Below, in pieces: positions 21,001 to 24,000 of a stretch of DNA of 50,752 nucleotides. Where the stretch lies: IMG/VR virus record IMGVR_UViG_2579778748_000002, one strand, 5' to 3'. Each line of letters begins with the position of its first letter. The stretch's first letter is position 1. Source of the stretch: a virus (taxonomy: Duplodnaviria > Heunggongvirae > Uroviricota > Caudoviricetes). A program made the position numbers.

Positions 21001-24000
21001 TGATGGCGATTCTCAGAAAACCTGCATCACGTAAAAATCACACGAATGTGATGATGCATATACAGGGGTATTTTAGTAACTACTTAAGTACACGCCAGCG
21101 TAAAGAGTTGAGCGAGGTTATACTTAACTATCGTTCTGGCACATTACCTCTTCTTGCGCCGTTGACTCTGCTGAAGCATTATCTGGGTGAGTATCCTAAT
21201 GATTACTTGCTTACACAGAATTACTTCGATCCCTATCCGGACGAACTGGCTCTAAGACTGATGGTAAATTAATTGTATGCGATATCATCCAAAAGGATGA
21301 GTTCCTGCATGCAGGATATTTACAATCGTAAAAACTACACTATGATACCCAGAGTGTCAGTTTGTATAAAAACTCTGTTTACGCTGAAGAAACCATTGAG
21401 ATGCAACTTAAAGTTGGTAAACATGCCAGTCAAAATATATAATATTATGATTCCACGCAGCTATATATAATATAACAGATTGGTTTAATAATTTGTCTTT
21501 GTGAGTTAAATACATAATTTTATACTTGTGATGCAATGAGATTTTCCTTATTGTTGAACTGGCGAATATTGATTTTCCACCTATACTTACTTGGTGTAAC
21601 CCCAATGATATCAGGTGGATAATATGCCATACATATGTTCTATCATTTTGGTGTTGAACTCGTTTGATGTCCGAATTGGTAAAGAAGATATTTTATTTAA
21701 AAAAGGAAGTGCTGTTCTCATTGATTAAAATTTAAAAGATTTTTTTCATCAAATATAGATCATGCAATGATCGTAGATGTTGAAGAGAAAACAGTTAATG
21801 ATTTCTTTAAAAGCAACACACTCTCACCTTTTTCTGTAAGAAGGTTTTATCCGGCATACTTGATGGTGGAATGTGAAGATTTTTCATTGTTAAAGAACTT
21901 GATTGCATGCTTGAATTGTGATGGCAGAACTGTGGATTTTGTTAGAAATCAAATATCACTTGCATGTCTTGCTATCTTATCTTCAGAGAAAATAGTGCAA
22001 AGTTTTTTATTTGGATGTCTTAATAGTTTAGGAAGTAAAGTTAAGGCTATTATTCACACGGATATATCTGCAGCATGGAGACTTTGTGATATATCTTCAA
22101 GACTGTATCTGAGTGAAAGTCTGTTAAAAAGAAAATTAAAGCACGAAGGCTTATCATTTAGTAAGTTAATTCTTGAAGAGCGAATGGTGATGGCGGAAAG
22201 GTTATTAAGCTACAATTTATATTCTGTTGGAAAAGTTGCTGAGATATGCGGTTATGAAAACACGTCATATTTTGTAAGTGTTTTCAGAAGATATTTTGGT
22301 GTTCCTCCCCATCAATATTCATCAAGATTTTTTTTAGAAAAGACATGATGTAACGTGATGCGTTTTAATGATTTTGTAATTTTCGTATTTGATAATTGTA
22401 TGATGCTTTCAGCTACGCCAGAATAATCGCTGGCGTTTTTCTTTTTGAATAGATGTTCAAGCCTTACGCTAATGTAACTTCTATACCTTTCCTCTTCGTT
22501 CCGAACCGTGTACACCATCCGTTATTTGCGGAGGTGAGGCTATGAAATCCATGGATAAGTTAACAACGGGCATTGCCTACGGCACCTCCGCAGGCAGTGC
22601 TGGCTACTGGTTTTTACAGCTGCTCGATAAAGTCACGCCCTCACAGTGGGCAGCAATAGGTGTGCTGGGTAGCTTGGTATTTGGCCTGCTGACGTACCTG
22701 ACAAACCTTTATTTCAAGATTAAAGAAGATAAGCGCAAGGCTGCGAGAGGTGAATAATGCCTCCATCATTACGAAAAGCCGTTGCTGCTGCTATTGGTGG
22801 CGGAGCAATTGCTATAGCATCAGTGTTAATCACTGGTCCAGGTGGTAACGATGGTCTGGAGGGTGTCAGCTACATACCATACAAAGATATTGTTGGTGTA
22901 TGGACTGTATGTCACGGGCATACAGGAAAAGACATCATGCTCGGTAAAACGTATACCAAAGCAGAATGCAAAGCACTCTTGAATAAAGACCTTGCCACTG
23001 TCGCCAGACAAATTAACCCGTACATCAAAGTCGATATACCGGAAACAACGCGCGGCGCTCTTTACTCATTCGTTTACAACGTGGGTGCTGGCAATTTCAG
23101 AACATCGACGCTTCTTCGCAAAATAAACCAGGGCGATATCAAAGGCGCATGTGATCAGTTACGTCGCTGGACATATGCTGGCGGTAAGCAATGGAAAGGT
23201 CTCATGACTCGTCGTGAGATTGAGCGTGAAATCTGTTTGTGGGGTCAGCAATGAACAGAGTAACCGCGATTATCTCCGCTCTGGTTATCTGCATCATCGT
23301 CTGCCTGTCATGGGCTGTTAATCATTACCGTGATAACGCCATTACCTACAAAGCCCAGCGCGACAAAAATGCCAGAGAACTGAAGCTGGCGAACGCGGCA
23401 ATTACTGACATGCAGATGCGTCAGCGTGATGTTGCTGCGCTCGATGCAAAATACACGAAGGAGTTAGCTGATGCGAAAGCTGAAAATGATGCTCTGCGTG
23501 ATGATGTTGCCGCTGGTCGTCGTCGGTTGCACATCAAAGCAGTCTGTCAGTCAGTGCGTGAAGCCACCACCGCCTCCGGCGTGGATAATGCAGCCTCCCC
23601 CCGACTGGCAGACACCGCTGAACGGGATTATTTCACCCTCAGAGAGAGGCTGATCACGATGCAAAAACAACTGGAAGGAACCCAGAAGTATATTAATGAG
23701 CAGTGCAGATAGAGCTGCCCATATCGATGGGCAACTCATGCAATTATTGTGAGCAATAGACACGCGCTTCCAGCGGAGTATAAATGCCTAAAGTAATAAA
23801 ACCGAGCAATCCATTTACGAATGTTTGCTGGGTTTCTGTTTTAACAACATTTTCTGCGCCGCCACAAATTTTGGCTGCATCAACAGTTTTCTCCTGTCCA
23901 ATTCCCGAAACGAAGAAATGATGGGTGATGGTTTCCTTTGGTGTTACTGCTGTCGGTTTGTTTCCAACAGTAAACGTCTGTTGAGCACATCCTGTAATAA

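Follow-up and report, generated by a model that had tools for sequence, protein, structure and literature searches.

A probably inactivated PatE-like AraC/XylS regulator gene in the Q-S cargo slot of a lambda/DLP12-type prophage

The IMG/VR record IMGVR_UViG_2579778748_000002 (50,752 nucleotides (nt), hereafter the window) is a complete-looking lambda/DLP12-type prophage in which an AT-rich island with an AraC/XylS-type regulator gene lies between the antiterminator gene Q and the holin gene S. The question raised by this locus is whether the gene still encodes a working regulator, be it of full length or in a shortened form. The initial annotation had described about 1.2 kb of strongly AT-rich DNA inside the late operon, directly before S, and a 193-amino-acid (aa) protein with the dual helix-turn-helix (HTH) C-terminus of AraC/XylS proteins. 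This description agrees with what we found: the G+C content is 0.329 (32.9%) at 21273-22541 versus 0.492 across the whole 50.7-kb window, Q and S lie at 19048-19440 and 22542-22757, and the protein matches both HTH_18 and HTH_AraC. The 193-aa open reading frame (ORF), however, is only the 3' four-fifths of a longer gene at 21624-22348, which is very probably an inactivated and recently decayed PatE-like cargo gene, likely a non-functional pseudogene.

A regulator gene with two close lesions

The 193-aa ORF is not a chance reading frame, since it matches the Pfam families HTH_18 (E 6.3e-15, 55.7 bits against a cut-off of 33.6, residues 110-186) and HTH_AraC (E 9.9e-12, 45.1 bits against a cut-off of 26.6). 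It also matches the GadX DNA-binding domain in the PDB with an E-value of 2.6e-20. Its best NCBIfam match is the YdeO profile, where ORF residues 32-187 align with profile positions 79-233; because the alignment begins at profile position 79, approximately 50 N-terminal residues are missing from the ORF. Remnants of an N-terminal domain, which had been proposed to be sought in other frames upstream, are indeed present at 21624-21766. The parts of the gene are as follows (coordinates in the window, strand, description and basis).

21624-22348, +, disrupted PatE-like AraC/XylS regulator gene, a probable pseudogene (called 'frameshifted' by the Prokaryotic Genome Annotation Pipeline, PGAP; alignment to intact alleles)
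21624-21728, +, native start and codons 1-34, followed by a premature ochre codon (translation; AGGTGG, similar to a Shine-Dalgarno (SD) sequence, upstream)
21740-21746, +, T7 homopolymer (T8 in intact alleles), a -1 frameshift in codons 39-42 (allele alignments)
21767-22348, +, 193-aa ORF, equal to residues 49-241 of the intact protein (partial N-terminal domain and complete double-HTH domain)

Read from the native ATG at 21624 in frame 1, the gene gives MPYICSIILVLNSFDVRIGKEDILFKKGSAVLID, which is 34 codons long and then meets a stop. This first lesion changes Tyr35 from TAC to TAA at 21726-21728; position 21728, an A in the window, is a C in each of the five alleles compared with it. The second lesion, the shortening of T8 to T7 at 21740-21746, produces a -1 frameshift seven bases beyond the ochre codon. 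In the PGAP annotation of NZ_CP115330, where the DNA is 100% identical, window positions 21624-22348 form a single 725-nt 'frameshifted' pseudogene, and DNA 100% identical to the whole island occurs in at least six complete Escherichia coli genomes among the matches listed. From the two lesions we infer that translation and function have been lost.

Comparison with an intact allele dates the damage. E. coli S43 carries the window's own haplotype with a gene of 241 aa, and across the 1269-nt island it differs from the window only at 21591, 21728, in the T tract, and at 22130 and 22238. There are no synonymous differences between the two alleles, which indicates that the inactivation is recent. 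A third candidate lesion, a change from A5 to A4 near 22334-22337 that turns the C-terminus EKEMM or EKDMM into EKT, was rejected, as S43 is intact with the same A4: it shares the ...FFLEKT C-terminus of the window in a 241-aa gene accepted by PGAP. We therefore regard A4 as a natural C-terminal variant.

We consider it extremely unlikely that the frameshift and the stop codon are assembly or sequencing artefacts in a gene that is intact in the organism. Single-base deletions in homopolymers are typical of long reads, and some of the public T6 and T9 variants could be of this kind, but a C to A change that makes TAA is not a homopolymer error, and 50 complete genomes that were sequenced independently, from various hosts and countries, share a 90-mer with both lesions. 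At least 1000 public contigs also carry the exact 193-aa product, which argues for a real allele.

According to the mechanism that we propose, the window gene would have been killed by the two close lesions, the ochre codon at Tyr35 and the T8 to T7 slip. Ribosomes starting at 21624 would release a 34-residue peptide, and the 193-aa ORF would be a leftover downstream frame whose start, the internal Met49, has no SD sequence.

The 193-aa remnant and the T tract

The initial annotation had suggested either a truncation or a minimal regulator. The truncation stands, in the form of the gene at 21624-22348, while the minimal single-domain regulator (of the MarA, SoxS or Rob-N type) was rejected: MarA models score 24 bits on the 193-aa ORF against cut-offs of 202-250, the ORF retains 87 residues of a truncated N-terminal domain, its homologues are 241-247 aa long, and ATG 21767 has no SD sequence.

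A different matter is whether the ORF could act as an N-terminally shortened regulator that starts at Met49 and either activates constitutively or competes in a dominant-negative way with regulators of the GadX, GadW, YdeO or PatE type. This is quite unlikely, even if its DNA-binding domain is complete and unmutated (HTH_18 E 6e-15; alignment), its frame has stayed open despite the two upstream lesions, its allele is common in public genomes, and some DNA-binding domains of the AraC family act alone. Translation is the first obstacle. The native start at 21624 pairs with the anti-SD sequence at -5.9 kcal/mol through AGGTGG, whereas no Shine-Dalgarno sequence was found at ATG 21767, where the pairing energy is +0.4 kcal/mol and 91% of the ATGs of the window pair as strongly or better. 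This ATG also lies 38 nt past the upstream stop, a poor position for re-initiation.

The second obstacle is the fold. In an AlphaFold2 model of an intact homologue (P0001; mean predicted local distance difference test score 87, predicted template modelling (TM) score 0.81), strands 3-10, 14-18, 21-25 and 29-34 and helix 35-42 lie upstream of Met49; what remains are strands 48-54 and 79-83, helices 87-132 and the double HTH at 136-235, which is the DNA-binding domain. A product started at Met49 would lack four of the six N-terminal beta-strands according to this model, and the remaining 87 residues of that domain would likely be misfolded. Residues 1-48 are kept across the family, PatE included, in our alignment. 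N-terminal deletions in PerA, Rns, VirF and ToxT abolish activation and DNA binding (PMC3581565). Furthermore, in an allele as young as this one an open frame is expected without selection, and PGAP calls the gene a pseudogene.

Several points weigh against reading the window copy as a dead gene with intact acid-resistance relatives. The pseudogene call was made from sequence. The 193-aa frame is still open with an undamaged DNA-binding domain, and its exact protein is widespread among the public contigs; low-level internal initiation or re-initiation may occur at this ORF. Isolated DNA-binding domains of AraC, XylS and RhaS keep partial activity when over-produced. As for the intact allele, its target regulon is derived from 52% identity to PatE, with the N-terminal domains at 39%. 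A scan for promoter consensus matches gave a count not above the shuffled expectation (12 found versus 10.0 +/- 3.1).

On balance, the window copy is most likely non-functional. That a regulator is at work in this copy is made unlikely by the ochre codon at position 35, the -1 frameshift, the lack of a ribosome-binding site at the internal start, the predicted loss of four of six N-terminal strands and the PGAP pseudogene flag. The initial annotation had named a non-expressed pseudogene fragment as the outcome that would overturn its regulator; a pseudogene fragment is what we find at the sequence level. This has little consequence for the window itself, because its copy is almost certainly dead. 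The gene is an unremarkable piece of decayed cargo in a slot of known type and has already been flagged by PGAP. The practical consequence is a correction of annotation, since many public records name the 193-aa remnant 'transcription regulator', 'AraC-like DNA-binding protein' or even 'GadW'.

The distribution of alleles was assessed with 90/91-nt probes spanning the lesions, of which exact matches were counted. Sequence similar to the island was found in 1086 of 5426 complete E. coli genomes, 873 of which cover at least 80% of the query, and the close lineage is present in 583 complete E. coli genomes, with the following counts.

Intact T8 (IdasGreatGrand haplotype, 91-mer), 240 of 583 genomes
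T7-only frameshift (90-mer), 225 of 583 genomes
Window allele, TAA and T7 (90-mer), 50 of 583 genomes

A frameshift in the T tract is thus carried by at least 47% of the 583 genomes. Among 80 IMG/VR loci, tract lengths were T8 in 49, T7 in seven, T6 in two and T9 in one. T7 occurs on at least two single-nucleotide polymorphism (SNP) haplotypes, that of the window and S43 and that of strain AMA1167, whose T7-only allele is called 'frameshifted' by PGAP; the T6 allele of strain 1943 is called 'frameshifted; internal stop'. The presence of T6, T7, T8 and T9 alleles and of T7 on more than one haplotype marks the T tract as a slippage hotspot.

Such variability could also be read as a reversible ON/OFF phase-variation switch with the window in the OFF state. 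All four tract lengths among close relatives, T7 on separate haplotypes and the near balance of T7-only and intact T8 matches would fit it. Nevertheless, we regard this explanation as very unlikely. The ochre codon lies upstream of the tract, so that a return from T7 to T8 cannot restore the window protein and the allele stays locked off. Classical contingency tracts are longer than T8, the tract of the 85%-identity class of alleles is interrupted (T4-C-T4), and some length variants may be homopolymer sequencing errors. In addition, ten of the twelve listed T7-only genomes have chromosomes of 4.66-4.87 Mb, a narrow size range that suggests clonal expansion of this group.

A broader conjecture goes as follows: the T8 run in codons 39-42 of this sub-lineage could be a mutational on/off switch for the prophage PatE-like regulator or, in a weaker variant, the 193-aa remnant with its DNA-binding domain could be made at a low level and interfere with GadX, GadW or YdeO targets. 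We hold this, too, to be unlikely. If true, retention of the regulator could be under selection that recurs or fluctuates, for instance where activating acid resistance ectopically is costly, and the frameshifts would then not be neutral decay; the window allele would be a switch that was later locked OFF by the ochre mutation.

Intact alleles and their relatives

Intact alleles encode proteins of 241-243 aa. Besides S43, the allele of phage IdasGreatGrand is intact (243 aa, 98.7% DNA identity), and so is the 85%-identity class found in lambda recombinant phages (243-246 aa). Between the 98% and the 85% classes, the ratio of non-synonymous to synonymous substitution rates (dN/dS) is 0.24-0.27, which indicates that intact alleles are under purifying selection. 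The lambda recombinants, which are laboratory phages (Lambda_ev..., 1H12, 2G7a; LR595865 and others; locus L002, 3087-3827), carry an 85%-identity module of the order Q-blc-ybgA-AraC-S with an intact regulator; the cassette therefore moves when an infecting lambda recombines with a resident prophage. Intact alleles also ride inducible phages such as IdasGreatGrand.

The C-terminal double-HTH domain of about 100 aa that characterizes the AraC/XylS family was recognized by Pfam, by the PDB match to GadX and by Foldseek. Within the family, the intact S43 protein compares with its relatives as follows: with PatE (Sakai ECs_0287) it shares 52.3% identity over 235 aa (E 1.6e-84), 70% in the DNA-binding domain and 39% in the N-terminal domain, and its full-length identity to GadW is 33%, to AppY 31% and to YdeO 31%. 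Orthology to YdeO or GadX was rejected, as the scores are far under the curated cut-offs. On the YdeO equivalog NF007407 (cut-off 348 bits), the 193-aa ORF scored 104.9 bits and the intact allele 127.5 bits over residues 1-236; on the GadX equivalog NF007432 (cut-off 500 bits), the scores were 85.9 and 86.3, and BLASTP aligned the DNA-binding domain only.

The traits of the PatE/Psr group that we could trace are homology to PatE from end to end and a place among the cargo of a lambdoid prophage, together with an uninterrupted frame, which the window copy lacks. The regulator is accordingly, as judged from sequence comparison, a relative of PatE at the level of the subfamily and not its orthologue, and the intact alleles form an uncharacterised sister group of PatE, PsrA and PsrB. 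They belong to phrog_1450 (350 bits), the function of which is given as unknown. No published work on this PatE-like subfamily turned up in literature searches, and PADLOC gave no defence-system match for the regulator.

PatE (Z0321 / ECs_0287 of O157:H7) resembles the intact allele in being a prophage-borne AraC/XylS protein of about 245 aa (about 247 for PatE) with a two-domain layout, and both score best on the YdeO profile while staying under its cut-off. It differs in location: instead of the Q-S slot, PatE occupies a site beside an insertion sequence fragment near the right end of Sp1, a degraded prophage. The window regulator, for its part, belongs to a distinct subfamily and is disrupted. 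PatE, like its relative PsrB, binds the hdeA region from -132 to -45. PsrA (Z1789) and PsrB (Z2104) are close relatives of PatE (PMC10877973). AppY of the cryptic prophage DLP12 of E. coli K-12 is likewise an AraC/XylS protein encoded by AT-rich cargo of a DLP12-type prophage and aligns over its full length at the identity given above; its gene, however, is found past the tail-fibre genes instead of in the Q-S interval, and its sequence is far more distant.

YdeO, GadW and GadX share the architecture of the intact protein; identity is 31-33% for YdeO and GadW, and GadX aligns over the DNA-binding domain only. The crystal structure of the GadX DNA-binding domain, 3mkl, superimposes on the model with a TM-score of 0.87-0.90 and a root-mean-square deviation of 1.3-1.6 A at 39% identity (Foldseek). 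Over its full length, the intact model is matched best by the structures of Rns, CsvR and ToxT (Foldseek E 3e-10, probability 1.0), all of which, like the model, have a double HTH after an N-terminal domain rich in beta structure. Their identity is 17-20%, and the TM-score is only about 0.42 because the orientation of the domains differs.

The initial annotation had also stated that prophage AraC-type regulators can rewire host regulons, and the literature bears this out for PatE, PsrA/B and AppY (PMC10877973, PMC10057817). PatE and PsrB activate gadE and hdeAB, and PsrA and PsrB repress type III secretion via GadE and YhiF (PMC10877973). AppY acts on gadE and feeds into the AR2 acid-resistance system, and its expression depends on H-NS, RpoS and ArcA (PMC10057817).

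By analogy with these proteins, it is plausible that intact alleles activate host acid-resistance promoters. We propose that the intact regulator, a two-domain protein of 241-243 aa of the PatE/YdeO/GadW type, would be expressed during lysogeny from a promoter of its own within the AT-rich leader, as would be expected from PatE, PsrB and AppY, that its transcript would end at a hairpin at 22415-22436, and that the protein would switch on acid-resistance promoters of the host in the manner of the same three regulators. If intact alleles do feed the GAD network, the presence, absence or frameshift of the gene could contribute to differences in acid tolerance between strains.

The cassette between Q and S and its surroundings

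The regulator gene is one of three cargo genes. Homology to DLP12 of K-12 ends at 19422 and restarts at 22531, so the replaceable module is a 3.1-kb three-gene cassette and thus larger than the AT-rich island, which is 1.27 kb long and makes up its right-hand third. The other features of the cassette and its two anchors are listed below.

19048-19440, +, antiterminator Q of the QuuD/phage-82 type, left anchor (Pfam PF06530, E 2.5e-51; PGAP 'antiterminator Q family protein' in near-identical DNA)
19539-19572, +, tR'-like intrinsic terminator, 9-bp GC-rich stem and T run (scan; hairpin 19539-19562)
19596-20120, -, blc-like outer-membrane lipocalin, first cargo gene (NCBIfam Blc NF007786, 316 bits against a cut-off of 267; Pfam Lipocalin_2; phrog_2809)
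20313-21272, +, YbgA-family gene, second cargo gene (Pfam PF04463, E 2.1e-40, and PF08349, E 4e-40; phrog_3275, 754 bits)
21273-21623, +, AT-rich non-coding leader, presumed promoter region of the AraC-type gene (G+C 0.322)
22415-22446, +, intrinsic terminator of the AraC-type gene, ahead of S (scan; hairpin 22415-22436, -12.1 kcal/mol, z -2.67)
22542-22757, +, holin S of the phage 21/EssD type, right anchor (Pfam PF04971, E 2.2e-35)

In the YbgA-family product (319 aa), a TudS-like 2-thiouracil desulfurase domain is fused to DUF1722. The order Q+ blc- ybgA+ AraC+ S+ R+ (signs denote strands) is complete in 68 of the 80 IMG/VR loci, and the other 12 are cut by contig ends. Our interpretation is that a three-gene 'moron' cassette (blc-like, YbgA-family and AraC/XylS regulator) fills an interchangeable slot between Q and S. 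In K-12 DLP12 the same slot is filled by nmpC::IS5, a porin cargo rather than a lipocalin, YbgA and regulator cargo. In Shiga toxin (Stx) phages the toxin genes stx are cargo of the Q-S slot, downstream of Q, pR' and tR' and upstream of S.

Since the hairpin at 22415-22436 lies ahead of S, a transcript of the AraC-type gene would end before S. The cassette lies inside the late transcription unit, and read-through by Q-modified polymerase is therefore needed; during lytic growth the DNA of the island would merely be read through by Q-modified RNA polymerase on its way toward S, R and Rz. The tR'-like hairpin folds at -14.9 kcal/mol (z -4.28), and 0 of 200 shuffles were as good. A match to the Rfam family 'Betaproteobacteria toxic sRNA' on this hairpin (19526-19569, +; E 0.007) scored 28.6 bits against a gathering score of 50 and most likely reflects only a hairpin followed by a U-run.

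In sliding windows of 1269 nt, G+C has a mean of 0.493 and a standard deviation of 0.070, which places the island about 2.3 standard deviations below the mean, and a comparably low G+C is seen in just one other island of the window, at about 48.5-50.7 kb. The regulator gene region has a G+C of 0.32, below the 0.43-0.44 of the blc-like and ybgA-like genes, which nevertheless always accompany it. Silencing of the island by H-NS is plausible from its composition (32-33% G+C) and by analogy to appY. ORFs of 65 aa in the leader are probably spurious. Promoter-like hexamers were found in the leader by the consensus scan at 21319-21346, 21414-21443 and 21499-21526, and as the scan was at chance level, the promoter of the AraC-type gene is only presumed to lie there. 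No RNA family was found in the island by an Rfam scan of 18800-23000 (E <= 1), in which two sub-threshold hits both fell outside the island, and ARAGORN found no tRNA genes in the whole window, unlike the Q-stx region of Stx phages.

The prophage shows the gene order int, xis, exo, bet, gam, N, cI, cro, cII, O, P, nin region, Q and cargo, followed by S, R, Rz, iss/bor, terminase, head and tail genes, J, lom and tail fibres. At the left end, a chromosomal lipoprotein gene (1-1284, -), which we take to be ybhC, stands next to a lambda-type integrase gene (1419-2489, -), and this suggests the classical lambda attachment region as the site of integration. A 1183-aa ORF (13723-17274, +) lies between P and ybcN in the nin region. 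Its counterpart in the near-identical CUVET16-394 prophage exceeds it by 357 nt (3909 nt in all) and is annotated by PGAP as 'inverse autotransporter beta domain-containing protein'; BLAST blocks overlap at 15030-15380, which points to variation in the copy number of an internal repeat. Downstream of S come R, Rz/Rz1 and bor/iss, the last being a Bor-family lipoprotein gene past Rz (23744-24085, -; Pfam E 9.9e-31), the counterpart of which in near-identical DNA is called 'increased serum survival lipoprotein Iss' by PGAP.

The second AT-rich island (48900-50752, G+C about 0.32) occupies the right end of the prophage past the tail-fibre genes and contains two ORFs on the minus strand, 48916-49329 and 49874-50752. 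It encodes a DUF2971 protein (Pfam E 1.1e-12), for which PADLOC gives a match to its candidate defence family PDC-S31 at an E-value of 9.5e-38, and a 137-aa protein with a weak zinc-ribbon match adjoins the DUF2971 ORF. The latter runs to the last base of the window, and the island is therefore cut off at that point.

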